From: a virus
Taxonomy: Duplodnaviria > Heunggongvirae > Uroviricota > Caudoviricetes
Virus record (IMG/VR): IMGVR_UViG_3300012940_000021
Coordinates: 63,912 to 127,911 of that record
Length of the DNA: 64,000 nucleotides
Strand: one strand, 5' to 3'
Shown here: one piece after another, positions 826 to 56,740 of the stretch
Numbering within the stretch: the stretch's first letter is position 1
Layout: every line of letters starts with the position of its first letter
Program-made: the position numbers and the translations under genes
The notes under the pieces: generated by a model
Database searches by the model: none
Seen by the model: the letters and a program-made list of their open reading frames with translations, nothing else
Told to the model about the DNA's origin: nothing

Positions 826-1036
826 GTCGCTCGGAGTGGCGACGGCGGTCTCTACCAGTTCCCCGGCGAGGTTGTAGCGGTGGAGGACCCGCGTCACCAC
901 ATCGCCGCGCTGGCGCATCGTTCGCTTGCAGTCGTCGCAGGCGAACTCGATGAGGTTACCCTCGACCACCTGGGGCTTCCCGCCCGAGAGGAGCAGCTTC
1001 GACAGGAGCCGCCGTGGACCAACGGGGCACCGGATC

Positions 1037-9361: not shown

Positions 9362-9657
9362 CAGAACTCCTTCATCGTCGTCTTGATGGCCTTCTCCTGC
9401 TCCGCCGAGAGGGGGGCGAACCGGAAGCGCCGACCCTCGGAGTGGAAGACCCAATCGCCGTCCTCGCGGACCATGATGTCCTCGGGGTAGAACACCATGT
9501 CCTTCATCGGCAGCGCCCAGCCGATGACGACCGTCTTGCCCTGGTCTTCTCCGACCTCGACATCGACCATCTCGAAGTTCGGGCGCTCGCCCTCCTGGGC
9601 GACGATCACACCGTGCGGGAAGGCCCGGTGAAGCTCCTCCTGAGTCACTTCGTCCAC
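9361..9657 (-). CDS. hypothetical protein (98 aa)
   Basis: ORF overlapping 13 nt with the end of the giant gene. Confidence 0.5.
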   Translation of the reverse strand: MDEVTQEELHRAFPHGVIVAQEGERPNFEMVDVEVGEDQGKTVVIGWALPMKDMVFYPEDIMVREDGDWVFHSEGRRFRFAPLSAEQEKAIKTTMKEF

Positions 9658-15600: not shown

Positions 15601-18600
15601 GCCTTCCAACCCTCCTCGGTCTTGTCCACGAAGTTGAGGAAGTTGCCCGCCTGGTCGAACATCGCCAGCCGCTGTCCCACCGGGAAGGCGTTGACGTGGG
15701 CCATCTTCGTGATGGCGTCGCCCTCGGCGTAGCCGAACTCGTTGACCTCGCTGGGGGACGGGACGTTCGGCTCCAGGGCAGGAAGCGAGAAGACGGTGAA
15801 CTTCTGGCTCTTGGCCGAGCCGGAGAGCTGCGACGCCGCGTAGACGTTGCCCCCCGGCGTGAGGAAGGCCCCGTTGTCGAGCTTGGTGTAGTAGGTCTTC
15901 GACCCGTCCTTCTTGGTGTACTCCAGCTTCGTGCCTGGCAGCAGCGACTCCAGGTCCTCGACGCTCGTGATGGTGTGACCCTCGCCCCACTCCCAGGGAG
16001 CCTGCTCCTCAGCCGACTGGCTCTGGAGCGGAGCCGGGACGTAGTAGTGCTTGTTCCCCCCTGGAGCGAAGAAGATGTCGTTGAGGGTGAGCATCCCGCC
16101 GTCCAGTCCAGACGGAAGCAGGGCGCTCCACTCGTCGCCGTCCTGGGCCTTCGTGTAGGTGATGATCTTGCCCTTGCCGGTGACCTCGAAGATCTGGTCC
16201 CCCGGCTTCGGGGCGTGGGTCACGATGTCCTTGTTGACCAGGACCGCGTTGGTGGGCACCCCCTCAGGCAGGTCGTCGTCCGTCGCCGGAGCCTCCGACT
16301 CGCTCGTCTGGTCGGGCACCAGATGCGGAGACTCCTCCGGCAGCGGGAGCGAGTAGTGCTCCGCGATGTACTTGCGACGGGCGAGGAGGGTGTTCGCCAT
16401 GGACTCGTCCATGCCGTACTCCGAGACCATCTCCTGGATGCGCTCGGGCGACAGGTTGACGATCCGCTGAGCACCGTCCAGCTCCTCGGCGTAGGTCATG
16501 TCCGATCCGAAGACCGCCGCCTTCTTGCCGGTGCGGTAGCTCTCCAGCTCGGTGACGCTCGGACCGAAGTCGGACCCCTTCGCGCTGCCCATGGCGCGGT
16601 ACTTCAGCGCGCCGCCGTTGTCGATGCGCCACGGGTTGCCGTCCTTGTCCGTGAGCACGTTGTCCCACGACAGTCCGAACACATCCCAGTTGGCCAGCCA
16701 GGCGTCGATGGCGAAGTCGCGTCGGACCTTGGAAAGCCACACCTGGTCGTTGAGCCGGGCCTGCATGTCCTGCTTGCCGTCCACGATCTTGGAGTAGATC
16801 TGGCCATCCGAGGCGACATCGACCTCGGGGGCGTTCACGCCCAGCTCGCGGTAGAGCGCGTTGGCCAGCGCCTCGTTGTTGCCGTGATCGGCGGTCTGCG
16901 GCTTCTTGACGTAGTACTTCGCCGGGCCGTCCGGCGTCGGCAGCTCGTAGAGGCCCCCCGGATTCGAGCCGCTCTGTCCACCGATCTTCTTCGCGCCCTC
17001 GTCCGTGATGAGACCGTGGCTGGGGATCGGCTCCTGAGTGGCCGGTGCCGGACCAGCCGTCAGGGCAGCGCCGTACTGCGCCAGCTCCTCATTGGAGTAG
17101 GTGTTGCCGTTCGCCCACGACAGCCACTGCCCGTTCGACTGCTTGGTGAGAGTCACGCCGTCGAGGTTCACCTGAGCGCCGGTCGGCGCGATGGCCAGGT
17201 GGTTGCGCTTCTGATCGACGGTCAGGTCCGGCGAGTTGAAGATCGGGGAGAAGCCCGAGATCGGCTCTCCAGGGTCGGCGGGCTGCTCCGGCTCCTGGGT
17301 CCCCGTCGGGGTCACGAGCGTGAGCTGATCGCGCATCGCGTACATGACGCCGTGGGACACAGGCTTCTTCTTGCCGCCCTGCGTCCAGGTGCCGTTCTCC
17401 TGCTTGCGGAACGGGACCTGACCCTCCTCCGGGATGAGCTTCGAGCCGACCGGAGCGTTCACCAGTGCGGTCGAGAACTCGACATCCGTCATCTCGGCCA
17501 ACGGCTTGTCGGCAGCCGGAGCCTCCTGAGGCTGCTGCTTGGTCGAGTTGCCCTTGAAGGCGTAGAGCTGCTCCGGCTGGTACTCGCCCTCGGAGGCCAT
17601 GACCGCCGTCATCAGATCTTCTTCGGTGACTCCGGCCTGCGGGTGGGTGAGGTTCTTCCACGAGCCGTCCGGCTGCTTCTCCACGAGGTCCGCCGCCTCA
17701 TAGTGCGGGGCGTCGCCGTCGGCGGTGTTCTCCTCGAAGTCCGGGTCGTAGCCGATCAGAATCTTGTCGCCCGGCTGGGCGTTCGTGATGTCGTCCTGGG
17801 TCGCCTCGGCGGTGTAGTCGTAGTCGCCGGGGAAGAGGTAGTGCGGGGATTCCTCGCTCAGGATGTCGAGCGGGGCCATGTCCTCGTGCCAGATGAGATC
17901 CGTCGAGTTGACGTTCGGCTCGTCCTCATCGACCTCCGGTGGCAGCGGCTTCGACTGCTTGGTGGCGTGGATGTAGACCTTCTCGGCACCACCGTCCACG
18001 ACCATCGCGTTCATGGCGACCTGGCCGAACCAGTCCTCGTCGTCATCGACGTTGGACCAGATGGCGAGGCCGTCCCCGGAGTCGGTCAGTTCGTACTCGG
18101 AGACCATCGCTCCGTTGTCGAAGGCCACGAGCACGCGGTCACCGATGGTGGAGACCTGCATGTGGCCGGGCGTGGCCAGCTCGGTGTAGTCGCCCTCGCC
18201 GGGCACGAGCTTGGAGGTCGAGCGGGGCTTGTCCCGCTTCGGCAGCTCCGGCGCGGGGCCATCTCCGATGTCCGGCGCGAGGATGGCGACGTTCTCCGAG
18301 GTCAGGTCGTTGCCGGTCTTGCTGGACTTCCAGGTCCCGTCCTCGTTCTTCGTGAGCGTGGCCTCGCTGTCCACCATGTAGATCTGGTGGCCGACCTCCG
18401 CGCTGTCGAGGAGTCGCTGAACCTCCGCCACGTTGGAGTTGCCGTTGATGGCGGAGATGTCCTTCGGCTTCGGACGCTTCGGCTTGGCCGGTGCCGGAGA
18501 GGGCTGCTCGGGCTGGGGTCCGTCCGCCAGCCCCTCCGGGCCGATGGCAGCCAGGAGCGCGTTGGTCGAGACCACGACCCCCGTGCTGCTGTCCCAGTCG

Positions 18601-20075: not shown

Positions 20076-20087
20076 GACGCTCCAAAA

Positions 20088-20128
20088 TCTTCTGGCCAGA
20101 AGAATGTCTGCTCTGTGATATCGGCCTC
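20088..20128 (-). promoter_or_regulatory. left-arm conserved motif copy 5 (AGAGGCCGATATCACAGAGCAGACA) followed by 16-bp perfect palindrome TCTTCTGGCCAGAAGA, upstream of the giant gene
   Basis: seen in sequence. Confidence 0.6.
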
Positions 20129-20349
20129 TACTCGTCTTGCCGAACGGCCCCTGGAATCGCCTCGACCTTCTCCACAACCTCCGAGATCTCACCTTCGAGC
20201 AGGAGACCGCTTCGATAGACCGTCGTGGCGTCGAGTCCACCGAAGCGGTAGCTCTTTTCGGTGGTTCGAGCATCGAGAACTACGGCCAGCAGCCCAGCCG
20301 CTGCCGACGGCACCGAGTCGAAGAAGAATCTTGTGGTCGAACTAGCCAT
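20128..20349 (-). CDS. hypothetical protein (73 aa)
   Basis: ORF overlapping 8 nt with MuF stop. Confidence 0.45.
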   Translation of the reverse strand: MASSTTRFFFDSVPSAAAGLLAVVLDARTTEKSYRFGGLDATTVYRSGLLLEGEISEVVEKVEAIPGAVRQDE

Positions 20350-21145
20350 CGTCGCCTCCCCGACGCACGAACGAGATGATTCGCTGGAGGGTCCTCACGA
20401 CGGCCCGGAAGATCATGCCGGGCATCCTCTTCACGTCCTCGGTGGTCATCGTGAGCGCACCTGGCCCTGGAGAGTCGATGTCGAGTGTCTCCAGGGTGTT
20501 CGCCAGGGTCACGATGAGGATGGCGAGGTAGCACTGGCACCGAGGATGGCGAGGAGGTCCGAGCAGGTCCCCGTAGACCTTCAGCCGGTTGTCACCGGTC
20601 GGGAACTCCTCGTGCAAGCCGACCTCGGTGCCGTGGAGTGCGCGGCAGTACTCGCAAGGCGTGTTGTTGACGAAGTTCGCCAGCCAGATCTTGCGGACTC
20701 GGTAGCCGAAGTCCTCCAGCTCGGTGTACGCCTGGATCATCGCGTCGGTGTAGCCTCGCTGGGCTGCGACCCCGGCGCTGTGCTGCATCCGCAGGATGGC
20801 TCGACGGCGAGCCTTCTCGTCGCGGCTGCTCTTCTTGTACTCACGGAGATTCCGGCGCACATCCGCGAGAAGATTCTGGAGGTACTCGGAGTTGAAGATC
20901 TCCGTGGGCGTCCATCCGGTGAGGCCGGACTCTCGGACCGCATGCGCAGAGGCCACGGCTGCGCTCGCTCGGTAGGCGCTGCGCACGATGGCTTCGAGCT
21001 GCCAGCGCACCGACTGCGGGCTGAAGCGCCCCTGATCCCACGCATCGAAGGTCGCGGCAATCTGCTGCCGAACGGTGGCCTCCAGGGCGCGGGCAGCGAG
21101 ATGAGCCTGACGGGCAGCCCGGAGTTGTTCCGCGAAGCTCGCCAT
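20342..21145 (-). CDS. MuF-like head morphogenesis (minor capsid) protein (267 aa)
   Basis: C-terminal PCEYCRALHG...HPRCQCYL cysteine pattern of phage F-like/SPP1 gp7 family; position after portal. Confidence 0.75.
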   Translation of the reverse strand: MASFAEQLRAARQAHLAARALEATVRQQIAATFDAWDQGRFSPQSVRWQLEAIVRSAYRASAAVASAHAVRESGLTGWTPTEIFNSEYLQNLLADVRRNLREYKKSSRDEKARRRAILRMQHSAGVAAQRGYTDAMIQAYTELEDFGYRVRKIWLANFVNNTPCEYCRALHGTEVGLHEEFPTGDNRLKVYGDLLGPPRHPRCQCYLAILIVTLANTLETLDIDSPGPGALTMTTEDVKRMPGMIFRAVVRTLQRIISFVRRGGDDG

Positions 21146-21507
21146 CAGCCCTCCTCGGGCTTCTGCTCCTCCGCCGCGTCAGCCAGCTCCGAGAGCACTG
21201 GGGTGCCGGGACGAGCCTCTCGGAACTGCTTCACCGCATTGGTGAACTCGCTCTGGATGTCCTTCATGAGGGCCGTGTTGCCCGTGCGCTTGGCCTCCAC
21301 GAACTGAGCCTGGAGAGACTTCAGACGCTCGATGGTGACCGGACGAGCGCCGCCTTCTGGAGCCTCCTCTCCACCCCCGATTGGAGACCCGATGGGCTTG
21401 CCATACAGACGAGCGCCCGCATCCGTCGCCACTCGACGGACCGCCAGGCTCACGAGCGAGGAAAGCTCCTCGCGCTCAGTTGGAATCGACGGCATCGAGC
21501 AGGTCAC
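21145..21507 (-). CDS. hypothetical protein (120 aa) sharing an N-terminal ~30-aa motif with the giant protein
   Basis: SLVSLAVRRVATDAGARLYGKPIGSPI vs giant VLELAVRRVRTPEGAQFYGLPIGAPI (17/31 identical). Confidence 0.6.
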   Translation of the reverse strand: MTCSMPSIPTEREELSSLVSLAVRRVATDAGARLYGKPIGSPIGGGEEAPEGGARPVTIERLKSLQAQFVEAKRTGNTALMKDIQSEFTNAVKQFREARPGTPVLSELADAAEEQKPEEG

Positions 21508-23053
21508 CCGCCATCCTCATCAGCTCCGAGTAGGCGTCCAGCGGCTGAGAGAGCTGCATCGCCTGCTCTTCGAAGTCCCGGAGGGCCTGGTCCTCTGGAG
21601 AGGCCGGAGCTGGAGGCCCGCCTGGAGCCGGGGCCACTGGACCGCCAGGGAGTGGCTGACCGTCGGGACCCAGGGCCGGGACGGCTCCGCCTGCGGCAGC
21701 GGCGAGCTGCGCCTGAGCGGCTGCCTGCTCCTCCTCGATCCGACGATCCACTTCGTCGTAGTCGATCTCCAGGCCCATCTCCTCGGCCACGACCTCCTCC
21801 AGCGCCCGCATGAACTCGGGGGTCGCGTTGACGCTCTGACCCGCCGAGGCGAGCTTGTCGAAGGTGGCCGAGATGGCCTGCTTCTGCTCGTCGGTGAGCT
21901 TGCCCCAGGTGAAGGTCGGGTACTTGCCCCCGTCGAAGTTGAAGTCGATGAGCTGCGGGATGATGTAGTGGTTGATCTGGTTGGCGATGTCGTCCATGAT
22001 GGCGCGGAGCATCAGGATGAACATGTCGTCGCCCGGCTGGGCGAAGTTCACCATCGAGCCTTCGCCCTGGCCCGCGCCGGTCTCCTTGTCCATGAAGCCA
22101 GCGAGCATCGACTTCGACATCTGGTTGTTGTGGTGGTTGATGAGGTTCAGGTACTCGAAGGACCCGGCCTCCTTCAGCAGCTCCACCTTGAAGCCGTCCG
22201 GCACCATCATCCACTGGGCCAGGGCGAGGTTCGCCAGGTTCTGCGCGAACTCGCGCTTCGCACCCATCGAGGCGTTGGGCGGAACGGTGCCGATGCGGGT
22301 GCCGACGGCGGCTCGCTGCGCGGCCAGGTGGGCGGTGTAGTAGAGCTTGACCTTCTTGTCGTAGTGGTAGAAGGCGCTCTGGAAGAACGAGACCCCGTAG
22401 AACTTCCGCTCCTCCTCCTGGGCCGCGTAGTAGAAGCAGTACTCCGGCTCGATGTACACGTCGGTGACCTTGCCGCCGTTGGTGGCCCGCTGGCGGATGC
22501 CCGCGAAGCCACCGCCCTTGTCGGTGACGAAGGTGACGGTCTCGCTCGGGCGGTAGGCGAGCTTCTTCAGGGTGATCTTGCCCGCGAGCGGGCCGAACTC
22601 TGGACGCCAGAAGACCTTCTCGAAGGCGGCGAATCCATCGAACAGAGCGCCGAGGAGCTGACTCATGAAGCGGTGGAAGGTGACGCTCATGCCGCCCTGA
22701 GCTGGAGGCGTGTGGAAGACCTGCTCGATGAACTCGGCCTCCTTCTCCCCGCCGTCGGCGGGAACGAAGGTCGCCGTGCTGAGCGCGGCACGAATGGGCA
22801 GCGAGAGGAGTCGGAACAGCGCTCGCGCCTGACCGTCCATACGCCGCATCGTCACGAGCTGTCGGACAGTCGGCCCCATCTCCTCCGACTCGTCGCGGAG
22901 GATCTCCTGAAGCTCCTCGTCCACGCTCTTCTTCAGGCCGACCGAGAACGGACGGAATGGAGTCGTGAACGCGAGGTTCTGATCGACGCCCTGCTCGACG
23001 CCAAGCTCCGGGACCTCGGTCTTCTCCGGCGCAGTTACGTCTTCACCAGCCAC
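21476..23053 (-). CDS. portal protein (525 aa)
   Basis: size and position directly downstream of terminase large subunit; overlaps TerL stop. Confidence 0.7.
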   Translation of the reverse strand: MAGEDVTAPEKTEVPELGVEQGVDQNLAFTTPFRPFSVGLKKSVDEELQEILRDESEEMGPTVRQLVTMRRMDGQARALFRLLSLPIRAALSTATFVPADGGEKEAEFIEQVFHTPPAQGGMSVTFHRFMSQLLGALFDGFAAFEKVFWRPEFGPLAGKITLKKLAYRPSETVTFVTDKGGGFAGIRQRATNGGKVTDVYIEPEYCFYYAAQEEERKFYGVSFFQSAFYHYDKKVKLYYTAHLAAQRAAVGTRIGTVPPNASMGAKREFAQNLANLALAQWMMVPDGFKVELLKEAGSFEYLNLINHHNNQMSKSMLAGFMDKETGAGQGEGSMVNFAQPGDDMFILMLRAIMDDIANQINHYIIPQLIDFNFDGGKYPTFTWGKLTDEQKQAISATFDKLASAGQSVNATPEFMRALEEVVAEEMGLEIDYDEVDRRIEEEQAAAQAQLAAAAGGAVPALGPDGQPLPGGPVAPAPGGPPAPASPEDQALRDFEEQAMQLSQPLDAYSELMRMAGDLLDAVDSN

Positions 23054-24974
23054 CGCTCATCCCCTTCATTCCGATGGGCAACCCGAGGTTGCCCTGCCCG
23101 AAGCTCAGCTCCGCCATCCCGACCAGCGGGGCGACGGCATCCCCCACTTCGAAGAAGCCGACCCCGACTTCTGTGATCTCGTGCTCGGGGTCTTCCTCGC
23201 CTCCGAGGTTGATGGCTCCCACGATAGAGCACGCGAGTGCGTCAGCCTCGTCTTTCGACCCGCCAGGCGGGTGGTCCACCTTGCCCTTGTCGCCCCGAGA
23301 GAGGGCCTCCAGCTCATCCATCAGGCGCTGGCTGAACGGCATGTAGAGGCGCGACTCGCTCGCCACGTCCTTCAGCGTCTTCCAGATGTCGGGGTCCCGG
23401 TCCGTGCTCACCCGGTCCGATTCGATGCCGTGGGAGAGCAGGATCTGGATCGTGTCCGTGCTCTGGAACCCGTCGAAGGTGAAGGAGCCGATCCAGAAGC
23501 CCCGCTTGATGAGTTCGAAGGCGAGCATGCGCGCCCAGCGGATCTGGATCTCGCGGGGGAGCTTCGACCCGTCCTCGTCCTTGGCCGACACGTCCGCCTC
23601 GAACGAGATGGTGAAGTCGTTGCGCAGGATCGGCACCGTCGTCGGCACCTGCACGATGAAGCCGGTCTCGTCCTCGACCTCCGCGATGCGCTCCTCCCAG
23701 CGCTCCACGTGGCTCATGGCGATGCCCGCCCGGTCGCCCTTCACCGCGAGGTCTCCGTGCATGGCGTAGCGAGCGCCCGCGATGGGCTTGAAGTCTGGGT
23801 CGAAGGTGAACACCGGCTCCCAGCCGCGCACCGTCTTGCCGGTCTTGGGCGAGGTCACCGCCGTGACCCGGTAGTCGATCTGGATCGGTTGGTCGGCGCG
23901 GTCCACGGCCTGCTTGAAGATGACCGGGTTGCGGAAGTAGGCGTCGGTGGCTCGGGTCGGCTTGCACTCGTACATCGAGGCAGCCTCGTCCGGGTCCTTG
24001 TCGTAGTCCTCCTGGAAGTCCTCCGGCCCCTTCACGCGAGGGTTGACCTCCCACGTGGCCAGCGGGCCGGACACGTAGTGGATGCTCTTCTCGCCGTACT
24101 TGGCGATGGAGTCGCGGCCCTCCTTGGTCTGCTTCTGGATGGTCGATCCGAGGTAGCGGGGGTAGGAGATGGTGACGCGCTTGTAGGTCTGCGGGAATCG
24201 GGTCGAGGCCGACCCCTTCAGCATCTTCAGGATGGACTCGGCGGAGGTCGATGCCTCTCGGGCGCGATTGCCCAGACCGACCATCTCGTCCTTGGCGCGG
24301 AAGGCGTCGATCTCGTCCGCGACGCCGAGCATGATGTTCAGACCCTCCTGGCTCTCGGCGTCCGAGTGGCCGGAGATGGCGATGATGTGCTTGTCGTACT
24401 CGATGATGTTCTGCTTGGCGTCGGCCTTGTCCTTGAACCAGCCGCGCTTGACCGCCTCTCGCATCGGGGTGAAGAAGGCGTTCATGGCCTGCGCCGAGTT
24501 CGCCGCGATGTTGAGCAGGTGGATCGAGTCGAAGTCCGGCATCTGGAAGTAGCGCTGCGGCGACTTCATGCAGAGCAGGAGATACGCCACCCGGAGCGAC
24601 GAGAACCGGGCGATGGCGTCCTTGCCGGACCCCTTACCCCACTGGAGCGTGATGATGTTCTTGACCGGGATGTCCTTCGCCCAGTACTCCTTGGTCTTCG
24701 GGTCATCGAAGCCCTCGGCCATGAGCGGGTACAGGTCCGGGTAGAAGATTCGCTCGATGTGCCGGACCGCATCCTCCTGCACTTCGGAGAGGTCGATGTC
24801 GGGCAGGTTGAGGAACTTCGAGTCCTGGATGAAGGTGCGCAGATCCACCGGCTCCTCCCAGAAGATGTCCTCCAGGGGGGACGGTGGGGTCCAGACCTCT
24901 ACCTCCGGCTCTGCGAAGGCAGCCGACATCTCCAGCGGGTTGCGGATCAGCCGAGGCCCGAGTTCGAGAGCCAT
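23043..24974 (-). CDS. terminase large subunit (643 aa)
   Basis: Walker A-like LQWGKGSGKD, Walker B GVADEIDAF, C-terminal RNaseH-like nuclease region HGDLAVKGDRAG. Confidence 0.85.
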   Translation of the reverse strand: MALELGPRLIRNPLEMSAAFAEPEVEVWTPPSPLEDIFWEEPVDLRTFIQDSKFLNLPDIDLSEVQEDAVRHIERIFYPDLYPLMAEGFDDPKTKEYWAKDIPVKNIITLQWGKGSGKDAIARFSSLRVAYLLLCMKSPQRYFQMPDFDSIHLLNIAANSAQAMNAFFTPMREAVKRGWFKDKADAKQNIIEYDKHIIAISGHSDAESQEGLNIMLGVADEIDAFRAKDEMVGLGNRAREASTSAESILKMLKGSASTRFPQTYKRVTISYPRYLGSTIQKQTKEGRDSIAKYGEKSIHYVSGPLATWEVNPRVKGPEDFQEDYDKDPDEAASMYECKPTRATDAYFRNPVIFKQAVDRADQPIQIDYRVTAVTSPKTGKTVRGWEPVFTFDPDFKPIAGARYAMHGDLAVKGDRAGIAMSHVERWEERIAEVEDETGFIVQVPTTVPILRNDFTISFEADVSAKDEDGSKLPREIQIRWARMLAFELIKRGFWIGSFTFDGFQSTDTIQILLSHGIESDRVSTDRDPDIWKTLKDVASESRLYMPFSQRLMDELEALSRGDKGKVDHPPGGSKDEADALACSIVGAINLGGEEDPEHEITEVGVGFFEVGDAVAPLVGMAELSFGQGNLGLPIGMKGMSGGW

Positions 24975-24982
24975 GAGGAGAC

Positions 24983-25753
24983 CTACCGATTCTGGGCAGC
25001 GATGGCCTGGATGGTCTCCAGGTAGGACTTCCGGCTGGCGCTGAGGGTGAGCACGTCCTGGAGGAGGAGCTGCTCGATCTCGTTCAAGTCGTCGGAGTCG
25101 AGGTCGTCGTCTTCGGTCTCCTTCCAGACCTGCTCGACCTGCTCCGCCTCACCGAACATGACCTTGTTTCCCGAAACGGTGTACGGGATCTTCAGGAAGG
25201 ACTGGTTCGCGTCCTTGCCCTCGCACTCCACGATGATGAAGTCGCTCCACAGCTCCCGAATCCACCGGTACGGGTAGAGCACCGACGACGGCGCGGCGAT
25301 GTCCTTGGCGTCCTCGTGCAGCTCCTCGTACAGGTGCCGACGCTCGCGCTCCTGGGCGTCCCACGCCCGGCGCACGATCTCGGTGTTGAACGACCCGACG
25401 CTCGTGAGCATGAGGTAGTCGGAGCCGCTCTCGTGGGTAGCCCGGACGATCTTCTTCGCCTTGTTCTTGGCCTTCAGCGCCTCCCACGCGGCGGCAGCCT
25501 TCGCGGCCTTGGCCTGCGTGTCGGCATCCACGTCGTCCCCACCAGCCGCCCACTTCTTCACGCGGGAGACAGCGATGGCGATGGCCGACGACTTCGACTT
25601 GCCGCTGCGCATGACCGCCTTGGCGATCCGGCAGATGTAGTTCGGCAGCCCGCCGCTCTTCTCGACCCAGTTCTCTCCCGGCGACGAGTCCAGGGAGCAT
25701 CCGCTCCCCGCCGCGAGGAAGACAACGAGGTCGGTGTCGTGCTTATCCAGCAT
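24983..25753 (-). CDS. hypothetical protein (256 aa) between putative TerS and TerL
   Basis: ATG at 25753 with GAAGGAG SD. Confidence 0.55.
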   Translation of the reverse strand: MLDKHDTDLVVFLAAGSGCSLDSSPGENWVEKSGGLPNYICRIAKAVMRSGKSKSSAIAIAVSRVKKWAAGGDDVDADTQAKAAKAAAAWEALKAKNKAKKIVRATHESGSDYLMLTSVGSFNTEIVRRAWDAQERERRHLYEELHEDAKDIAAPSSVLYPYRWIRELWSDFIIVECEGKDANQSFLKIPYTVSGNKVMFGEAEQVEQVWKETEDDDLDSDDLNEIEQLLLQDVLTLSASRKSYLETIQAIAAQNR

Positions 25754-25763
25754 GATGCTCCTT

Positions 25764-26210
25764 CTACTGGCCGATGGCGGCGTACTTCTCCGCGAAGTGC
25801 CGACGGACGCGCTGGCGCTCGGACGCATCCGAGATGAGTTCCACGGCCTCCAGCGAGATCTTGGTGACCTCCTCCATGAGCGCGGCGCGGAGCTGCTCCT
25901 GGCTGACCTGGAGCACGCGGTTCCACTCCTTCAGCAGGTCGAGCCACTGAGCATTGAAGTCCTTCTCGGTGTTGACTCCGACCCAGCCGTGCTCCTCGCG
26001 GTACTTGATGATGAGGTAGCGAGTGACGATGCGCTCCAGCAGGATCTCCTGGGCGGTGTGCATCGGGATGCCGAAGGCTTCGGCGCGCAGGCGGCTCTTC
26101 AGCTCGTCGTGGAGCGCGAGCAGCTCGGGGTCCTGGGCGATGTACTCCGGCAGACGGAACGCTCGTTCGAGACCGTCAGCGGGTGCTGCATCGAGATCGC
26201 GGTCGGTCAT
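25764..26210 (-). CDS. hypothetical protein (148 aa), possible terminase small subunit by position
   Basis: ATG at 26210 immediately after conserved motif (leaderless arrangement identical to 7737). Confidence 0.4.
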   Translation of the reverse strand: MTDRDLDAAPADGLERAFRLPEYIAQDPELLALHDELKSRLRAEAFGIPMHTAQEILLERIVTRYLIIKYREEHGWVGVNTEKDFNAQWLDLLKEWNRVLQVSQEQLRAALMEEVTKISLEAVELISDASERQRVRRHFAEKYAAIGQ

Positions 26211-26230
26211 GCTATGTGATATCGGCCTCG
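26211..26230 (-). promoter_or_regulatory. left-arm conserved motif copy 6 (CGAGGCCGATATCACATAGC + ATG); its TAG is the stop codon of the upstream GT2 gene
   Basis: seen in sequence. Confidence 0.6.
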
Positions 26231-26946
26231 CGGAAGGTGGGCGACCCCCAGAACTGCTGGAAGTGCGGGTTTCGGAAGAAGTTCTCGGCGGTCCCGTGCG
26301 TGCCCACGACTCCGATGTGGTCCGAGCGAGGGGCGCACGGAACGGCGCACCGCAAGCCTCGCTGCGGCAACACCCTCGTGTTGAGGTTCCAGTCCCAGCC
26401 GGACTGGTGCCCCGGATAGTCGTTGAAGGTCGAGTAGTCGTGGTCCCACGTCGGGCTGATGACCTGCTCCCAGCGGTCGCGCCACGTGCCCCAGACCAGA
26501 GGGCTGAACTGCCGCGACCGCTGGACTACATCGGGCTGCGTGGGGTCGCTCGTCATCGTGTTGAAGGCGTTGACGGTGGCGATCTCTGGATCGTGCTCGA
26601 AGTGCTCGGACGACCACTCGAAGAACTTCAGGATGTCGTCGGACACCACGATGTCGTCCTCCGTGCGGACCACGAAGTCGAAGCCCTCGGAGAACAGGCG
26701 CTCGAAGACGACCCACGGGTGACGAAGCACTCCGTAGCGCTCGGGGTTGATGGTCAGCTCGATGTCGATCCCCATGCGATCCGAGAAGGACCGAATGATG
26801 TCGGAGACCGCACTCTGGAGAGGCGACGGCTCGATGGTGGCCAAGACGGTCCACCCCTCCAGACCCTGCACCGACTCCCACGAGACCAGCGAGTCTCGAA
26901 GGTAGTCGGGACGGTTGTAGGCCGTGAGGAAGAGCGCTCGCCGCAT
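26212..26946 (-). CDS. glycosyltransferase, GT-A fold (family 2-like), 244 aa
   Basis: N-terminal FLTAYNRPDYL and TEDDIVVSDD (DxD-like) motifs; upstream part of the long ORF is wrong-frame artefact. Confidence 0.6.
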   Translation of the reverse strand: MRRALFLTAYNRPDYLRDSLVSWESVQGLEGWTVLATIEPSPLQSAVSDIIRSFSDRMGIDIELTINPERYGVLRHPWVVFERLFSEGFDFVVRTEDDIVVSDDILKFFEWSSEHFEHDPEIATVNAFNTMTSDPTQPDVVQRSRQFSPLVWGTWRDRWEQVISPTWDHDYSTFNDYPGHQSGWDWNLNTRVLPQRGLRCAVPCAPRSDHIGVVGTHGTAENFFRNPHFQQFWGSPTFREADIT

Positions 26947-27719
26947 CAGAGGGTCTCCACTGGAGGGGCGGCTTCCACGACCGGCTCCAGGACCTCCACT
27001 ACCTCGCCCACCACGAGGTCGGGGATCGGAGTGGCGGTCTCCACGACGTTCGAGCGCCCATCCTTCTTGTGCCCCCAGTGGTGAACGGCGATGGTCTCTG
27101 GAGGGAGCTGGTCGAGGAACTCCTGGGCGTCGCCGCCCGGCACGATCCGACTCCAGTGGATCGGGTTGAAGGTCGGGACCGGGTAGACGTGGATCAATCC
27201 AGGATGAAGCCGAGCCTGCTCGGTCAGCAGCGAGGGGCCGGTGGTGAGGACCATCTCGGCGGTCGGGTTGGCAAAGTACTTCTCGGGGAGTCGGGCGAGC
27301 ACCTTGCCCCAGAACTCGTTCTGGGGATCTGGAGCGCCGAAGGCGGCGTTCACGATGTCCCCGATGTCGTTCTCGTAGGAGGCCCAGGCTCGGTCGGGCA
27401 GGTTCTCCGGCAGCGGGCGCACGGGCTGCATGTCGCAGTTCACGTAGACGCCGCCCCACTTGTGGACCAAGGCGTAGGCCACCACGTCCGCGAGCTGGAC
27501 GTACAGCTCGATGCCGTGCCGTCCGGCGTCCCGCTCGTAGAGGCTGTCGAAGACCGGCTTCAGGTCGGGGAAGTCGCTGAGGACGCTCTCGTCCCAGAGG
27601 AGGACCTGCCAGCCGGGGTTGAGGTCTTGCCACATCCAGCCGTAGACCTCGTACTCATCGGGGATGACCCGCCCGGCCCAGAAGCGGTGGATGATCCGGG
27701 TGTGGCCGAACTCGTTCAT
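26946..27719 (-). CDS. glycosyltransferase with DXD sugar-binding region (Och1/GT32-like), 257 aa
   Basis: RIIHRFWAGR...NPGW...LLWDE motif block typical of Gly_transf_sug family. Confidence 0.55.
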   Translation of the reverse strand: MNEFGHTRIIHRFWAGRVIPDEYEVYGWMWQDLNPGWQVLLWDESVLSDFPDLKPVFDSLYERDAGRHGIELYVQLADVVAYALVHKWGGVYVNCDMQPVRPLPENLPDRAWASYENDIGDIVNAAFGAPDPQNEFWGKVLARLPEKYFANPTAEMVLTTGPSLLTEQARLHPGLIHVYPVPTFNPIHWSRIVPGGDAQEFLDQLPPETIAVHHWGHKKDGRSNVVETATPIPDLVVGEVVEVLEPVVEAAPPVETL

Positions 27720-27723
27720 CGCC

Positions 27724-28641
27724 CTAGCCCCGGTAGTACTCGACCGTCCGTCGCACTCCCTCTGGAAGGGGGACGAACGCCCGGCCCTCTGGACCATAGA
27801 TCACGTTCAGGGTGCTCGGATCGGCCTTGACCACGGCCCCTGGAGTCTCGCCGGGTCGAAGTGGAAGGTGGACGATGGACCCCGAACCGACCTCCCGGAT
27901 GACTGCCTCCGCGATGTCGAGGACGGTGGTGTCAGCCCCGGTGCCTGCCTCCAGGACGTGGATGAAGTTCCCGTTCTGGGCGGTCGCGTAGAGGGCATCC
28001 ACCAGGATGTCGGCCACGTCGCTGACGAAGATCATGTCCATGATCTGCTGGCCGTCGCCGTAGACCTCGATGGGGTCTCCGTGCAGCGCTCGCATCACGA
28101 ACGACGGCATGATCTTGCGGACCTTGCTCGGACCGTAGGGAGCAGCGACCGACTGCCGAGGCCCGTAGGCGTTGAGCGCCCGGACGACCGAGATGTTCGT
28201 GCCCCGGTACTTGTTGAACATCCAGCAGAGGCGCTCGACCGTGGACTTCGAGATCGAGTAGGGGTTCTGCTCCCAGTGGTTGCCGACCGCGATGTTGACG
28301 CCCGGAATCTTGTACTGCGCCGCCGCCTCCAGGATGTTCAAGCCACCTTGGATGTTGGTCATGATGGCTGGAGTCGGGTTGCCGATGGTCTCCTGCGTGC
28401 CGAGCACTCCGGCCAGGTGGATGAAGGCGTCGGCGTGGGCCATGGCCTCGGTGACAGCGACCGGATCGCGCATGTCTCCGAGGAAGGCCGTGACCCCTGA
28501 AGGGTGCATGTGCGTCGCGGTGTGGTCGAGCACGAGCACGCGGTTCCCGTCCGCCAGGAGGCGCTCCACGACGTAGGAGCCGATGAAGCCTGCCCCTCCG
28601 GTGACGAGTACGGTCTGGTTCTTCACTGAGCGCTCCTTCAT
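27724..28641 (-). CDS. NAD-dependent nucleotide-sugar epimerase/dehydratase (SDR family), 305 aa
   Basis: VTGGAGFIGS Rossmann motif, YSISK catalytic YxxxK. Confidence 0.85.
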   Translation of the reverse strand: MKERSVKNQTVLVTGGAGFIGSYVVERLLADGNRVLVLDHTATHMHPSGVTAFLGDMRDPVAVTEAMAHADAFIHLAGVLGTQETIGNPTPAIMTNIQGGLNILEAAAQYKIPGVNIAVGNHWEQNPYSISKSTVERLCWMFNKYRGTNISVVRALNAYGPRQSVAAPYGPSKVRKIMPSFVMRALHGDPIEVYGDGQQIMDMIFVSDVADILVDALYATAQNGNFIHVLEAGTGADTTVLDIAEAVIREVGSGSIVHLPLRPGETPGAVVKADPSTLNVIYGPEGRAFVPLPEGVRRTVEYYRG

Positions 28642-29756
28642 CGTTCTCGCATCTCCGCGAGAGAGAGCTTGCGAGGGGGGCCTGCGGTGGGTTCGGCGGG
28701 TCTGGCCGAATCCGGTGGAGCGGGTACTACACCGGGGGACGAAACCGCCTTCCCCCGAGTGAACGCTTCAGCGATCAGGATAAGGGCCAGCTCCAGGTTG
28801 CCGCGAGGATCGGAAGACCCCCGAAGGCGGGTATTGACCTCCCACAGCGTCTTGACGGCGAAGAGCAGTCGTTCCTGCTCCAAACGCAGGGCGAGTTCGC
28901 GCCGTGCCTCGAACGAGGCCCCGGTCACCTGGAGGGTCCCTCCGGCCTTCAGCACGAACAGGTCTCGGATGCAGGCCACCAACTCGGCCTGGATCTGGGA
29001 GGGGGAACCGATGGTGGCTAGCTGCTCGTCCAGGAGAGCGAAGATGCGCTCGTGGTTGCCGGTCATCATGGCGGCGAGCAGCGCTGGGGCCGGGTCGTGC
29101 TCGCCCGCAAGCGTCGCGTAGCCCTCCAGGGTCGTGACACGAGCGCGCCAGGCCATGTCGAGCGACTGGATGGCGCGGCGGACGTTCCCGTCGCTGCGCT
29201 GAGCCAGGTGGTGCAGGAGCGCAGGCTCGACCTCGATGCCTTCCTTCTGCGCGATGACGACCAGGCGGTCCAGGACCTCCGCCGCCGAGACCGAACGGAA
29301 CTGGAACTCCACGAGCCGGGACAGGATGGTCTCCGGGATCTTGTGCGGCTCGGTCGTGACGAGCACGAAGACCGTCCCGGCAGGCGGCTCCTCCAGCGTC
29401 TTCAGGAACGCCTCGTAGCCCTGCTTCGTGATCGACTGCGCCTCGTCCAGGATGACGACTCGGTAGGAGCCTCCGGTCGAGTAGCGCACCACGTCGATGA
29501 GCTTGCGAATCTGATCGACGCCTCCGTTGCTGGCCGCGTCGATCTCGATGGTGTCGCTGGCGTCCATGGCCGAGGCCAGGATGCGCGCCGCCGTGGTCTT
29601 GCCGACGCCGGACGGGCCGGAGAAGAGCAGCCCCGGAGGGACGGACTCCGTGGTGACCATCTGCTGGAGCACGATGGCGTTCAGGCGCTGCCCGATCATT
29701 TCTGAAAACGAAGTCGGGCGGTACTTCAGAACGAGGGGCTGCCCGTCAGAGGCCAT
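28638..29756 (-). CDS. DNA polymerase III clamp loader subunit (DnaX/gamma-tau-like AAA+), 372 aa
   Basis: KYRPTSFSEMIGQ, GPSGVGKTT Walker A, VVILDEAQ Walker B, SRL sensor. Confidence 0.85.
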   Translation of the reverse strand: MASDGQPLVLKYRPTSFSEMIGQRLNAIVLQQMVTTESVPPGLLFSGPSGVGKTTAARILASAMDASDTIEIDAASNGGVDQIRKLIDVVRYSTGGSYRVVILDEAQSITKQGYEAFLKTLEEPPAGTVFVLVTTEPHKIPETILSRLVEFQFRSVSAAEVLDRLVVIAQKEGIEVEPALLHHLAQRSDGNVRRAIQSLDMAWRARVTTLEGYATLAGEHDPAPALLAAMMTGNHERIFALLDEQLATIGSPSQIQAELVACIRDLFVLKAGGTLQVTGASFEARRELALRLEQERLLFAVKTLWEVNTRLRGSSDPRGNLELALILIAEAFTRGKAVSSPGVVPAPPDSARPAEPTAGPPRKLSLAEMRER

Positions 29757-29994
29757 CTTCGATGTCCTGGGTCAGGTCATCGAGGAGGTCCCGACGCATG
29801 TCCTCGATCATGCGCTCCAGCAGCTCGGCCTCGTTTTTCGAATCTCCGTAGTAGAAGTCGAAGGCCAGCGTGATGTTGTCGTGGCACGCCTTGCAGGGCT
29901 GCTGCGAGATCAGGCAGTCGTTGTGGACTCCGAGCTGGTGCGCCTTGCGGAGCACCTTCCGGGGCATTCCGGGGTCGATCATCAGCTCAGCCAT
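29746..29994 (-). CDS. small Cys/His protein (82 aa), possible zinc-binding
   Basis: CLISQQPCKACHDN motif; overlaps neighbours. Confidence 0.45.
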   Translation of the reverse strand: MAELMIDPGMPRKVLRKAHQLGVHNDCLISQQPCKACHDNITLAFDFYYGDSKNEAELLERMIEDMRRDLLDDLTQDIEDGL

Positions 29995-30637
29995 CCTCGC
30001 GCACCTGCGTCTTCCCGTCCTCCAAGGTGAAGCGGTACACCTTGTCGGCATCTTCCGCGAACTCGGGCTGGTGGGTGACCATGAAGATCTGGACGCTCGT
30101 CTTGTCCACGATCTGGCGGAGGAACTCCCGGAGCGGGTCCAGGTACTCGGCACTCACGTGGGCGAAGGTCTCGTCCAGGATCAGGATGTTCTCAGTCTTC
30201 GTGCCCTTGGACAGGAGCATCACGACGAGCCGGAGCAGGAAGCCGATGGTCGCGGCCAAGCCGCCGCCTCGGGCCTCCATGACGTTGGTCTCGAAGACGC
30301 GGCCCTCCAGGGTCGTGCGGACGATGAACTCCACGGTCGCGGACTTGCCGCGCACCGCCTGGATGATGTGGAAGGACAGCGACTCATCGAAGATCGTCTG
30401 GAGTCCACGAGTGACCAGCTCCTCGATGATGCGCTGCGCCTTCATCTGCCGGTCCTCGCCCAGCGAGTTGAGCAGGATGGTCACCCGCTCCAGGGTCTCG
30501 ATGGTCTCGGCAAGGTCAGCGACCTCGGCCTGAAGCTCCTTGCCGCGCAACAGGGTCGCTCGCATCTCGCCTTGCTCTGCGTCGATGCGACGACGCGCTT
30601 GGCGAGTGCGGATGGTGAGGGTGTCGAGGTCAGCCAT
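29987..30637 (-). CDS. Rad50/SbcC-type ABC ATPase C-terminal lobe only (216 aa): coiled-coil, signature-like motif, Walker B, H-loop; no Walker A lobe
   Basis: GGGLAATIGFLLRL (signature-like), ILILDETFAHV (Walker B), FMVTHQ (H-loop); ATG 3 nt after right-arm motif. Confidence 0.5.
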   Translation of the reverse strand: MADLDTLTIRTRQARRRIDAEQGEMRATLLRGKELQAEVADLAETIETLERVTILLNSLGEDRQMKAQRIIEELVTRGLQTIFDESLSFHIIQAVRGKSATVEFIVRTTLEGRVFETNVMEARGGGLAATIGFLLRLVVMLLSKGTKTENILILDETFAHVSAEYLDPLREFLRQIVDKTSVQIFMVTHQPEFAEDADKVYRFTLEDGKTQVREDG

Positions 30638-30638
30638 T

Positions 30639-30657
30639 TCACGTTGTGATACGTCCG
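30639..30657 (-). promoter_or_regulatory. right-arm conserved motif (GGACGTATCACAACGTGAA) abutting start of 29987-30637
   Basis: core CGTATCAC shared by >=9 sites. Confidence 0.55.
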
Positions 30658-31088
30658 GCTGTAGGAATCGCACAGCGCGTAAGCGGTAATCGCTGGGGGT
30701 TTACAGCTCGGGATGTCTGGTGTATGCGCGCAGGCAGCCCCGCGCTCGCGGGAATCAGATGAAGTTGAATCTCTCCAGGTAGCGATCCAGAGCCTGGGAT
30801 GCTGGATAAGGCCCCTTACCCCACGCGGTGAAAAAATCTCACCCATGGTGGTGACTCGCCCGGTCTCGACGCCGTTGTCGAAGGTGGACGGCCAGGCCCA
30901 GATCTCAGCTCCCGGCTCGGATGCTCCCTGGAGAGCGAGTAGCACTCCAGTACAGCGACCGTCGCCTCCGAGGATTGCCCTTCGAGGGGTTCTCGCGGAT
31001 GGGAGAGGCTGGAGCGCCCGACGGCGCGGCCCCTACTGCTGCACGCAGTGCGAGTGAATGTACCCCCGGAGATGCTCCCTCGCAAGTC

Positions 31089-31130
31089 GAAGCCCCTCCA
31101 CTGCGTGCAGCAGTTCGGTGGAGGGGCTTC
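31089..31130. terminator. 13-bp perfect inverted repeat (GAAGCCCCTCCAC...GTGGAGGGGCTTC) with 16-nt loop in the 750-bp non-coding region; probable bidirectional terminator/boundary of the plus-strand island
   Basis: seen in sequence. Confidence 0.5.
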
Positions 31131-31151
31131 GCGCTGGAAACTGTACCGGAG

Positions 31152-31340
31152 TCAGCTTTGCTGGTCAAACTTCAGCGGCGTATCACTCCGAGAGGGCACT
31201 GCCAGCGCGACCTTGATCCGACGCCGCTCCTTGCGAGTCGGATCGGTGAGTGCGAAGTAGGCCCAGGTCGCAATCGTGATCGGGATCATCGCCGCCGCGA
31301 TCCAGAACGCGACGATGGCGAAGGTCAGGAAGGTGTCCAT
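31152..31340 (-). CDS. small hydrophobic protein (62 aa, two predicted TM segments)
   Basis: ORF with hydrophobic stretches; no clear SD. Confidence 0.3.
   Translation of the reverse strand: MDTFLTFAIVAFWIAAAMIPITIATWAYFALTDPTRKERRRIKVALAVPSRSDTPLKFDQQS
31177..31195 (+). promoter_or_regulatory. right-arm motif in plus orientation (CAGCGGCGTATCACTCCGAGAGG; 16-mer identical to copy at 41066-41083)
   Basis: seen in sequence; only plus-oriented copy, upstream of plus-strand island. Confidence 0.4.
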
Positions 31341-31360
31341 GAGTCTGGCACTCTAGCAGG

Positions 31361-31392
31361 TTGCAATTGTCATCCGCTAGGTATAGTCTGAA
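31361..31392 (+). promoter_or_regulatory. sigma70-like promoter P1 for plus-strand island: TTGCAA-15 nt-TATAGT, overlapping TTGCAATTGTCA element
   Basis: hexamers seen in sequence ~45 nt upstream of ATG 31431 (SD AGGAGGA). Confidence 0.55.
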
Positions 31393-31430
31393 TCACGGTC
31401 AACATTCATTTCCGAAAATAGGAGGACACC

Positions 31431-31796
31431 ATGGCCCAGCTCCCCGAAGGTCTCACCCAGAAGGACATCGACCGGCTCGCGCAGCTCGACGCCGGGATGA
31501 AGAAGCTCCAGGACGAGTACAACGCCCTGAAGGACAAGGTGAAGCGTGCCCATCAGGACGCGGGCCTCACCGGCAAGCAGACGCTCGTCTACCCGAGCGA
31601 CAAGTACGGGACCGTCATCGTGGACCTCAACGAGCAGAAGCGCGTGGACACCGAGGCCCTCATCAAGGCGCACCCCTTCGACAAGTTCCCGCAGTACTGG
31701 CGGATGCAGTTCGACCAGGCGGCGGTGGACGAGACCGTCCTCAACAAGTTCCGCACGAACGTCATCCCGACGCTCTCGATCAAGGTCGCGCAGTAG
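31431..31796 (+). CDS. hypothetical protein (121 aa)
   Basis: first gene of plus-strand island, strong SD. Confidence 0.65.
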   Translation: MAQLPEGLTQKDIDRLAQLDAGMKKLQDEYNALKDKVKRAHQDAGLTGKQTLVYPSDKYGTVIVDLNEQKRVDTEALIKAHPFDKFPQYWRMQFDQAAVDETVLNKFRTNVIPTLSIKVAQ

Positions 31797-31865
31797 GGGA
31801 GGGCACGCCGACAGAAGACGCCGACGAGCACCAAACCCAACGCCAGATCCTTCGAAAGGACATCC

Positions 31866-32846
31866 ATGTTCGTTCTTGCCATCATCGTCTTGCTGCTGGC
31901 CCTCGTGGCCTTCGTCGCCTCGTTCTTCATCCGGGTGACCGGCGAGCGCCGCAACCCCGAGACTCGGGAGTACGAGACCGTCGAGCTGAGGGGACCCACG
32001 CGGTGGACTCGCCTCGGTGCCTTCGGCGGATTCGTCCTCGGCGGTCTCTTCCTGCTGTTCGCGTCCTCCTACACCCAGGACCCCGGCGAGGCCAACGTGC
32101 TCCGCTCGTGGACGGGTGAGGTCGTCGGCTACGAGACCACGCCGGGCTTCCACCTGAAGGCCCCATGGGTGGACACCGTGACCTTCGACATCCGCAACCA
32201 GCGCGCCGTCTTCGTGAGCGAGCAGGTCGCAGGAGAGGGCGACAACGCGGGCGGCGTCGCGGATGGCCCGCAGATCACCGTGCAGGACGCCGAGGGCGTG
32301 ACGGCGAACATCGACATCGCCATCCGCTACAGCATCGACCCCGACGCGGTGGAGGGCATCTACGCCGACTACGGCAACGAGGAGAACCTGCGCTCGCGGC
32401 TCATCTTCAACGACATCCGCTCGGTCGTGCGCAACGTCCCCGGCTCGTTCGACACCATCGAGCTGCTGACGAACCGCACGGATGTCCAGAACGCCATCCA
32501 GGAAGCCCTGGAGGCGCGCTGGGAGGACGACGGCATCATCGTGGAGGACGTGGCGCTCCAGGAGATCCGCTACGGCGAGAGCGTGACCGCTGCCTTCGCG
32601 GCGGCGCAGGAGGCCCAGATCCAGGTCGAGACCGAGCAGGCTCGCCTGGAGGCCGTCCAGGTGTCGGCGCAGCAGAAGGTGGTCCAGGCACAGGCCGAGG
32701 CGGACGCCAACGCCATCCTGAACGCCTCGCTCACCCCGGCCATCCTCCAGCAGCGCTACTTCGACACGCTGCGTGAGCTGGCGGCGGCGGGCAACCTCGT
32801 CATCACCGACGGCACGAGCACCCCGCTGGTGCAGATTCCCCGGTGA
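31866..32846 (+). CDS. SPFH/band-7 (stomatin/prohibitin/HflKC-like) membrane protein (326 aa)
   Basis: N-terminal TM helix, band-7 core (LKAPWVDTVTFDIRNQ...), C-terminal coiled-coil/oligomerisation region. Confidence 0.75.
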   Translation: MFVLAIIVLLLALVAFVASFFIRVTGERRNPETREYETVELRGPTRWTRLGAFGGFVLGGLFLLFASSYTQDPGEANVLRSWTGEVVGYETTPGFHLKAPWVDTVTFDIRNQRAVFVSEQVAGEGDNAGGVADGPQITVQDAEGVTANIDIAIRYSIDPDAVEGIYADYGNEENLRSRLIFNDIRSVVRNVPGSFDTIELLTNRTDVQNAIQEALEARWEDDGIIVEDVALQEIRYGESVTAAFAAAQEAQIQVETEQARLEAVQVSAQQKVVQAQAEADANAILNASLTPAILQQRYFDTLRELAAAGNLVITDGTSTPLVQIPR

Positions 32847-56731: not shown

Positions 56732-56740
56732 CGTGTCCTC

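Follow-up and report, generated by a model that had tools for sequence, protein, structure and literature searches.

The 64,000-nucleotide stretch of viral DNA analysed here (hereafter the window; positions 63,912 to 127,911 of IMG/VR record IMGVR_UViG_3300012940_000021, Caudoviricetes) encodes four sugar enzymes on its minus strand, and we consider the chances about even that these enzymes glycosylate the phage's own virion proteins. Three of them form a cassette at 26212-28641, which consists exactly of the genes for a short-chain dehydrogenase/reductase (SDR), a GT32-like glycosyltransferase and a GT13-like glycosyltransferase, while the fourth, a GT4-type glycosyltransferase at 1037-2197, lies among the tail genes. 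A sequence-only reading of the window had proposed these four genes; their coordinates and strand were borne out when the strand was read, and their family assignments hold in profile searches, all four proteins scoring above the Pfam cut-offs. For each gene, metagenomes contain over 100 homologues of equal length, and therefore the four genes are real and conserved and not chance open reading frames (ORFs). The catalytic motifs are conserved as well (EDD/WDW, EX7E and N-x-D), which indicates that the enzymes are under selection, and all four are conserved, probably active enzymes. New here are the enzyme set itself (a GT13-like enzyme, a toxin-like GT32-type enzyme with an N-x-D motif, an atypical SDR and a GT4 paired with a zinc-ribbon-like protein), the modular exchange of genes at the cassette slot, and the breadth of the lineage in which these are found.

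The window is part of a 128,478-bp metagenomic phage contig (ENA ERZ27256362:k141_473844, in which the GT13-like protein is identical), and its phage is probably a lytic siphophage of Microbacteriaceae with a genome of about 128 kb. Nucleotide and protein comparisons were run against 50,697 phage records, and the sole similar cultured phage was Microbacterium phage Magritte (GenBank OR553905.1, 133,228 bp, host M. foliorum), which was also the only match in a megablast search with window positions 26000-29000. In the Magritte record, gp4 is labelled ASCE ATPase, gp5 "UDP-glucose dehydrogenase" (corresponding to the window's SDR), gp6 glycosyltransferase, gp7 HNH endonuclease, gp8 glycosyltransferase, gp12 terminase, gp13 portal, gp30 tail terminator, gp31 glycosyltransferase and gp33 major tail protein. 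The two phages share the order ATPase, SDR, two glycosyltransferases, three hypothetical genes, terminase and portal, and likewise the order tail terminator, glycosyltransferase, small ORF and major tail protein. They differ in that the HNH endonuclease gene gp7 (L002 4005-4622) separates the two cassette transferases in Magritte, whereas in the window these genes overlap by one base, and the Magritte record differs from the present account in giving generic product names only.

The GT13-like enzyme (26212-26946, minus strand, 244 aa) matches PF03071 GNT-I with an E-value of 9.5e-8 (31.7 bits against a cut-off of 25.4), and in a phmmer search it aligned over residues 7-231 with the catalytic domain of human POMGnT1 (its residues 215-428, E 4e-10) and more weakly with GnT-I (E 8e-4). 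The EDD metal- and nucleotide-binding motif (E96-D97-D98) is invariant in sets of 32 and 45 homologues, and in the 45 sequences so are W184-D185-W186, R191, P203, G212, G215 and H217. The AF2 model (pLDDT 91.1) had GnT-I and POMGnT1 structures as its top seven Foldseek matches in the PDB (E about 2e-14, TMq 0.67-0.75), followed by GnT-II, and its more distant fold matches include TarS and TarP; the GT-A glycosyltransferase of the earlier reading can thus be named more precisely as GT13-like. With GnT-I (1fo8, 1foa) and POMGnT1 (5ggf, 5ggi) it shares the GT-A fold, the EDD motif and the C-terminal pattern WDW...R...P..SR..H.G. It differs from them in being a bare catalytic domain with no type II membrane anchor, stem or lectin domain, in sharing only about 17-22% identity and in having the bacterial cytoplasm as its setting. 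There are more than 265 homologues of about 240 aa, nearly all metagenomic and many on contigs of 110-137 kb. Among the phage records, tblastn found Magritte only, at 46% identity, far more diverged than the neighbouring genes. A fold search of the model in BFVD returned no close or named viral relative, and no relevant paper on GT13-type enzymes in phages came up in a literature search.

The GT32-like enzyme (26946-27719, minus strand, 257 aa) belongs to PF04488 Gly_transf_sug (E 2.6e-8, 34.9 bits against a cut-off of 23). The "Och1-like DXD" label that it had been given stands as far as the family is concerned and is imprecise otherwise: the motif after the GGxY strand is N-x-D (N-C-D in GGVYVNCD), not the canonical D-x-D, and other structures score better than Och1. 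In 42 sequences, N94 is conserved in at least 90% and D96 is invariant. The best Foldseek matches of the AF2 model (pLDDT 91.9) were SetA, YeGT and PaToxG (E 1.5e-9 to 4e-8, TMq 0.50-0.54, identity 15-18%), with YGT also among the best structural neighbours, while Och1 (9n3s) came at rank 14 with E 1.5e-5, all TMq values being about 0.5. SetA, YeGT and PaToxG are domains that glycosylate proteins directly, in the cytosol, and weak sequence matches of the phage protein also point to glycosylating toxin domains. The known members compared, namely SetA of Legionella, YeGT and YGT of Yersinia, PaToxG of Photorhabdus and fungal Och1 (GT32), share the PF04488 region and the GT-A fold with the phage enzyme. 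The toxin domains and Och1 carry D-x-D, in contrast to the N-x-D of the phage protein, which is a free-standing 257-aa enzyme of an operon and resembles them with TM-scores of only about 0.5. Metagenomes contain 141 homologues, "mannosyltransferase OCH1-like enzyme" being a name that JGI gives to homologues, and among the phage records there were Magritte (71% identity) and three weak matches to uncultured phages.

The SDR enzyme (27724-28641, minus strand) is an extended SDR of the nucleotide-sugar epimerase/dehydratase family, a clear member of PF01370 Epimerase (E 4e-40, 138 bits against a cut-off of 20.9) and of PHROG 540 "nucleotide-sugar epimerase" (E 1.4e-57), and it is 73% identical to Magritte gp5. 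Its best PDB matches are UDP-GlcA decarboxylase (UXS) and UDP-glucose 4-epimerase (GalE), which score nearly equally (about E 1e-26), and no NCBIfam equivalog cut-off is reached, the best being RmlB with 103 bits against 365; for these two reasons the reaction cannot be named. The NAD-binding GxxGxxG (VTGGAGFIGS) and the catalytic YxxxK (YSISK), both of which had been read in the translation before, are present and are kept in 13 phage homologues. The region ahead of the catalytic Tyr is atypical. In a MAFFT alignment with an E. coli GalE sequence entered by hand, the phage proteins have NIAVGNHW as the strand preceding the Tyr, VGNHW being invariant in their clade, and they lack about 18 residues at the place of NFIFSSSATVYG in GalE. 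Compared with GalE or UXS, the stretch leading up to the Tyr is some 18-24 residues shorter, and the alignment with the UXS structure in the PDB shows the same deletion. Because it is conserved, the phage clade is presumably functional despite its atypical active site, and it may represent a distinct SDR subfamily.

The GT4-type enzyme (1037-2197, minus strand; GT-B, retaining) passes the PF00534 Glycos_transf_1 cut-off marginally (26.9 bits against 26.4) and matches PHROG 2170 "glycosyltransferase" with E 5e-31; its EX7E motif (E257-x7-E265) is invariant in an alignment of four sequences. The best PDB sequence match is chlorovirus B736L (3oy2, E 4.6e-6), and 7qsg is another matching GT-B structure. 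As had been proposed, the gene precedes the major tail gene; it lies between a tail terminator homologue (2231-2773, minus strand, 54% identical to Magritte gp30 "tail terminator") and the major tail (tube) protein (167-745, minus strand, 81% identical to Magritte gp33 "major tail protein"; PHROG 36442). Between the GT4 and tube genes lies the gene of a small Cys3-His protein of about 70-78 aa (823-1059, minus strand; PHROG 31736, E 5.5e-19), the longest ORF of which shares 23 nt with the 3' end of the GT4 gene. About 65 distinct homologues keep its pattern, R-C-P ... E..C..C ... H, to at least 90%, and this pattern looks like a zinc ribbon. Among the phage records, GT4 homologues were found in Magritte (61% identity) and in six Arthrobacter phage records, with weak partial matches in Streptomyces and Rhodococcus phages. 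We then compared 82 loci (80 viral contigs with a GT4 homologue and two Arthrobacter phage loci), nearly all of which have the order tail terminator, GT4, small protein, major tail protein, and in 77 of them the small Cys3-His protein follows GT4. Arthrobacter phages Kitkat and DanielleIgnace (58-61 kb) keep the same tail order with only about 34% identity in GT4. Given this conserved order, we regard GT4 as part of the fixed core of the tail module, where its partner is the putative zinc-ribbon-like protein, and the tube protein is a candidate acceptor for it.

The cassette genes are contiguous, as had been stated, with junctions that are short overlaps or gaps of 1-4 nt. Upstream lies a clamp-loader-like AAA+ ATPase of 372 aa (28638-29756, minus strand; similar to DNA polymerase III gamma/tau/delta', Pfam DNA_pol3_delta2 E 1.8e-22 and AAA E 1e-12, 59% identical to Magritte gp4), the stop codon of which (28640-28638) overlaps the SDR ATG at 28641 (ATGA). 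This start gives an SDR of 305 aa. An alternative GTG at 28626, giving 300 aa, is preceded by AAGGAG, was picked by the gene caller of the source contig and matches the N-termini of homologues, and it appears the likelier start. Between the SDR stop (27726-27724) and the GT32-like start, an ATG at 27719, lie 4 nt, and the GT32-like gene therefore encodes 257 aa and not 283 aa, as its longest ORF would. It shares a single base with the GT13-like gene, the ATG of which begins on the last letter of the GT32-like TGA (TGATG, 26948-26944). After the GT13-like stop (26214-26212) and a gap of 1 nt, the ATG at 26210 opens the gene of a 148-aa protein (p148; 25764-26210, minus strand), the downstream flank. 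It is followed by a 256-aa protein (p256; 24983-25753, minus strand, a gene call of the source contig, 55% identical to Magritte gp11) and by the large terminase subunit of 643 aa (23043-24974, minus strand, 64% identical to Magritte gp12 "terminase"). The terminase matches PHROG 17415 weakly (E 1.4e-4) and has no sequence match in the PDB; its gene is directly upstream of that of the Mu-type portal protein (21476-23053, minus strand, 525 aa; Pfam Portal_Mu E 2e-35). The cassette had been placed upstream of a TerS/TerL pair, of which the terminase is indeed found downstream; the name TerS for the 148-aa protein is rejected as unverified, since p148 has no Pfam, PHROG or PDB match. PHROGs likewise hold no family for p256 or for the GT13-like and GT32-like proteins.

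In related contigs, the clamp loader and p148 hold their positions around a slot whose content varies. The 80 viral contigs collected for their GT13-like gene show, where syntenic, the order clamp loader, one to three sugar genes, GT13-like gene, p148, p256, terminase and portal. In a second set, anchored on the terminase (56 contigs with at least 5 kb upstream of it), at least one recognisable cassette gene was present in 46 contigs, in at least 17 combinations. The content of the window, SDR with GT32-like and GT13-like genes, is the commonest (10 contigs, or 11 with a diverged GT13-like variant), and the GT13-like gene is the usual anchor of the slot. A close SDR homologue is followed by a GT32-like gene in most loci but not in all; in L225 the GT13-like gene comes directly after it. 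Alternative genes encode another GT-A enzyme, an FkbM methyltransferase (PF05050), a class-I methyltransferase and a cytidylyltransferase (PF01467). For example, contig L174 (CAZIWB010000017.1, 126,252 bp), with terminase, clamp loader and portal 83%, 75% and 75% identical to those of the window, has in its slot a cytidylyltransferase, a 243-aa protein, a GT13-like enzyme (42% identity) and an FkbM methyltransferase. This contig is a near-complete phage genome deposited within the metagenome-assembled genome of an "uncultured Cellvibrionaceae bacterium", where it looks mis-binned. In loci L198 and L203, only about 0.7-0.8 kb lie between the flanking genes, and there is no cassette. The three-gene set of the window is therefore best described, on gene content, as one allele of a swappable cassette at what appears to be a recombination-prone slot. 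The two modules are separable, as contig 3300025875_000003 carries the GT4 module (L100) with an almost empty slot (L198). The statement that 140-150-kb contigs with GT4 lack GT13 is withdrawn, because the scan with two peptide patterns misses diverged copies like that of L174; the terminase-anchored scan found distant GT13-like matches (25-31% identity) in several GT4-carrying contigs of 140-150 kb.

From the gene identities, folds, motifs, synteny and slot variability observed, we infer an acceptor, an order of steps, the sugars and a benefit such as shielding or stability, as follows. Two modules would place O-linked glycans on virion proteins in the host cytoplasm late in infection. In the first, GT4 and the small Cys3-His protein would have the tail tube or some other structural protein as their target. 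In the second, the SDR would turn a host UDP-sugar into a rarer sugar, the toxin-like GT32-type enzyme (retaining) would transfer a sugar, possibly directly to Ser, Thr or Tyr of a protein, and the GT13-like enzyme (inverting) would add a beta-linked hexosamine onto an existing sugar. Swaps of the partner enzymes would then make the glycan differ between otherwise similar phages. Several lines of evidence argue for such virion glycosylation: the cassette is packed head to tail with packaging and head genes, with no terminator-like site inside it, and GT4 is fixed beside the tube gene; the slot is hypervariable and holds sugar-tailoring methyltransferases; the toxin-like fold of the GT32-like model suggests a protein acceptor; the GT13 family habitually extends sugars that are already on proteins; and there is a precedent in the mycobacteriophages Che8, Corndog and Myrna. 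By analogy, the variability of the slot would be expected for an exposed glycan, and its allelic diversity resembles that of O-antigen loci. A more far-reaching version, which we put forward tentatively and hold to be possible rather than probable, is that a lineage of actinophages of about 58-150 kb coats its virions with serotype-like exchangeable O-glycans, made by a universal, tube-dedicated GT4/zinc-ribbon pair and a hot-swappable cassette of GT13 extender and toxin-like priming enzyme. This would be a second, independently evolved machinery of virion glycosylation and the first functional role of GT13 in bacterial viruses.

A number of observations weigh against virion glycosylation. Inspection of the capsid and tube sequences revealed neither a C-terminal tail rich in Ser/Thr nor any other acceptor signature, the C-terminus of the tube protein being conserved and not rich in Ser/Thr. 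In blastp, the four enzymes showed no similarity to the proven enzymes of Che8 and Corndog, among them Che8 gp110 and Corndog gp38, which are required there, and their neighbours (nothing better than E 0.08). The cassette directly follows replication-type genes (exonuclease, clamp loader), so that its position alone does not give late expression. A scan of 20000-32000 for promoters and terminators gave nothing above chance, and the timing of expression is thus not readable from the sequence. The two atypical active sites weaken the case: the catalytic Ser/Thr strand (about 24 residues before the Tyr; S124 in GalE) is not conserved in the phage SDR clade, and the GT32-like enzyme does not have the first Asp of DXD, so that activity is not to be assumed for either. 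Relatives without a cassette indicate that it is dispensable for assembly. Moreover, a lone chromosomal GT13-like gene (42-48% identity) occurs in four Amnibacterium species (L171, L172, L173 and L175) and in a Microbacteriaceae metagenome-assembled genome (L170). Its locus is conserved, with MarR-type and HisC-like genes flanking within a few kb and, in L172, a cation/proton-antiporter-like gene (identified by eye) abutting it; the gene lies outside any prophage or glycan gene cluster and is vertically inherited in Amnibacterium, and as such it shows that the enzyme family is not tied to virions.

The same enzymes could instead modify a precursor of a host envelope glycopolymer (a teichoic-acid-like polymer, a rhamnan or a lipoglycan) in the cytoplasm, and by altering the phage receptor either block superinfection or keep progeny off debris. 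This seems unlikely to us, although several findings point in its direction: the soluble wall-polymer GT-A enzymes TarS and TarP are among the distant fold matches of the GT13-like model, the PF01467 cytidylyltransferase of the alternative cassettes is of the glycerol-phosphate type, typical of teichoic-acid chemistry, the Amnibacterium gene means that the enzyme can serve cellular glycans, and the cassette is dispensable in some relatives. However, the GenBank annotation of Magritte lists no integrase or repressor, which argues against lysogenic conversion and makes the phage look lytic, the cassette has no membrane or flippase component, and a GT4 fixed in the tail operon of about 80 genomes would be left unexplained. 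More doubtful still, indeed quite improbable, is the use of the toxin-like GT32-type enzyme, perhaps with the others, as an effector that would serve host takeover by glycosylating a host protein, much as the Legionella and Photorhabdus toxins inactivate their targets. The nearest structures (SetA, YeGT, PaToxG and YGT) and the agreeing weak sequence matches suggest it, but the TM-scores are only 0.50-0.54 and the identities 15-18%, and the neighbours of the gene are a sugar-nucleotide enzyme and a transferase from a family that uses sugar acceptors. In close relatives it is replaced by unrelated transferases and methyltransferases, which fits the building of a glycan better than an effector with one target.

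Glycosylation of modified bases in the phage DNA, as a protection against restriction, would be a further use for such transferases, and one to which we give marginally less credence than to the effector. T-even phages glycosylate their DNA and differ in the sugars that they place on it. The cassette adjoins replication-type genes, and a dNMP-kinase-like protein is encoded in the window as it is in Magritte, which has a MazG-like protein as well. For the Brevibacterium phage LuckyBarnes, which combines a dCMP hydroxymethylase with two transferases, base glycosylation has been proposed (PMC6588365). Against this stands that the only thymidylate-synthase homologue of Magritte, gp52, is a canonical ThyA (472 bits against 327, a full-length equivalog match), that no hydroxymethylase is annotated in Magritte, the closest cultured relative, to which this result applies (the corresponding genome part of the present phage lies outside the window), and that none of the four enzymes matches the T4 alpha- or beta-glucosyltransferase families in Pfam. 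FkbM-type methyltransferases and the position of GT4 in the tail operon do not fit a DNA acceptor either.

With regard to known systems, virion glycosylation by phage-encoded transferases is described for Che8, Corndog and Myrna in PMC12363180, and the mycobacteriophage glycans sit on capsid and tail-tube subunits (PMC12363180, PMC11256854 and PMC4351075). The Corndog transferases are encoded within the structural operon and are not themselves part of the virion (PMC4351075). The window resembles these phages (Che8 gp108-110, Corndog gp35-38, Myrna) in having soluble transferases and sugar-tailoring enzymes in or beside the structural genes. The families are different, as the Che8 and Corndog enzymes are GT2, GT25 and TylF-type methyltransferases, to which the window adds the SDR, the GT13-like enzyme, the toxin-like GT32-type enzyme and the tail-fixed GT4/zinc-ribbon pair. 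The sequence-only reading had called the enzyme set unusual, and this is right for the combination of enzymes; the layout, on the other hand, is standard in the lineage and annotated in Magritte, and transferases within a structural operon are known from Corndog. Chloroviruses (PBCV-1 A64R, 2p72; NY-2A B736L, 3oy2) likewise encode cytoplasmic transferases, and A64R acts on the major capsid protein of PBCV-1 itself. They differ in that the matches are weak (B736L to GT4, E 4.6e-6; A64R to the GT32-like model, Foldseek E 6e-5), the hosts are eukaryotic and the viruses unrelated.

The relation of the window to Magritte was followed by local tblastn of the window ORFs against the whole Magritte genome, in which window positions 64000 to 31000 correspond to about 116.8 kb to 133 kb of Magritte and positions 30673 to 167 to 0.3 to 30.2 kb. 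Since these blocks reach both Magritte ends, the window spans the ends of the Magritte record. The divergent intergenic region of about 750 bp at 30673-31431 corresponds to both ends of the linear record, and the metagenomic contig is continuous there. It contains the one sigma-70-like site found in 20000-32000 (31168-31140, minus strand), a single match that is no more than expected by chance. No tRNA genes were found in the window. The G+C content climbs from about 0.65 to 0.68-0.69 across the last 8 kb (56000-64000), which keeps its synteny with Magritte, as in the dNMP-kinase-like gene at 62947-63918.

Several neighbouring genes on the minus strand also deserve mention. A single ORF of 3,542 aa (9645-20273) lies between the portal/MuF-like genes and the scaffold and capsid genes; it has no Pfam family, shares only a weak stretch of 19% identity with the shorter Magritte gp17 (1,991 aa), and on inspection by eye shows numerous modules of about 100 aa in repeat, along with two stretches that look kinase-like. 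In the block of head genes, a 411-aa protein (7829-9064) combines an N-terminal Amidase_2 domain with repeated peptidoglycan-binding motifs (WGYxGxxDGxPG). In Magritte it matches nothing but a part of the endolysin gp116, encoded elsewhere in that genome, and it may be a virion-associated or a relocated lysin. A 161-aa protein (C-terminus at 3117-3200) ends in four tandem EDPI repeats (EDPIEDPIEDPIEDPIEDEP), and the Magritte homologue aligns to residue 141 only.

To our knowledge, glycosylation of phage virions has been shown only in a few mycobacteriophages, where it blunts antibody recognition. Should the lineage described here do so as well, virion glycosylation would have arisen on more than one occasion and from unrelated enzymes, and the swappable cassette would be a natural toolkit of small soluble transferases directed at proteins or glycans, including a minimal GT13 domain of 244 aa. 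The idea is directly testable, as Magritte is a cultured SEA-PHAGES isolate on Microbacterium foliorum. If true, the trait would be common in environmental phages of Microbacteriaceae and Arthrobacter, which meet no immune system, and its benefit must then differ from immune evasion and may be, for example, particle stability, control of adsorption or evasion of host defences.

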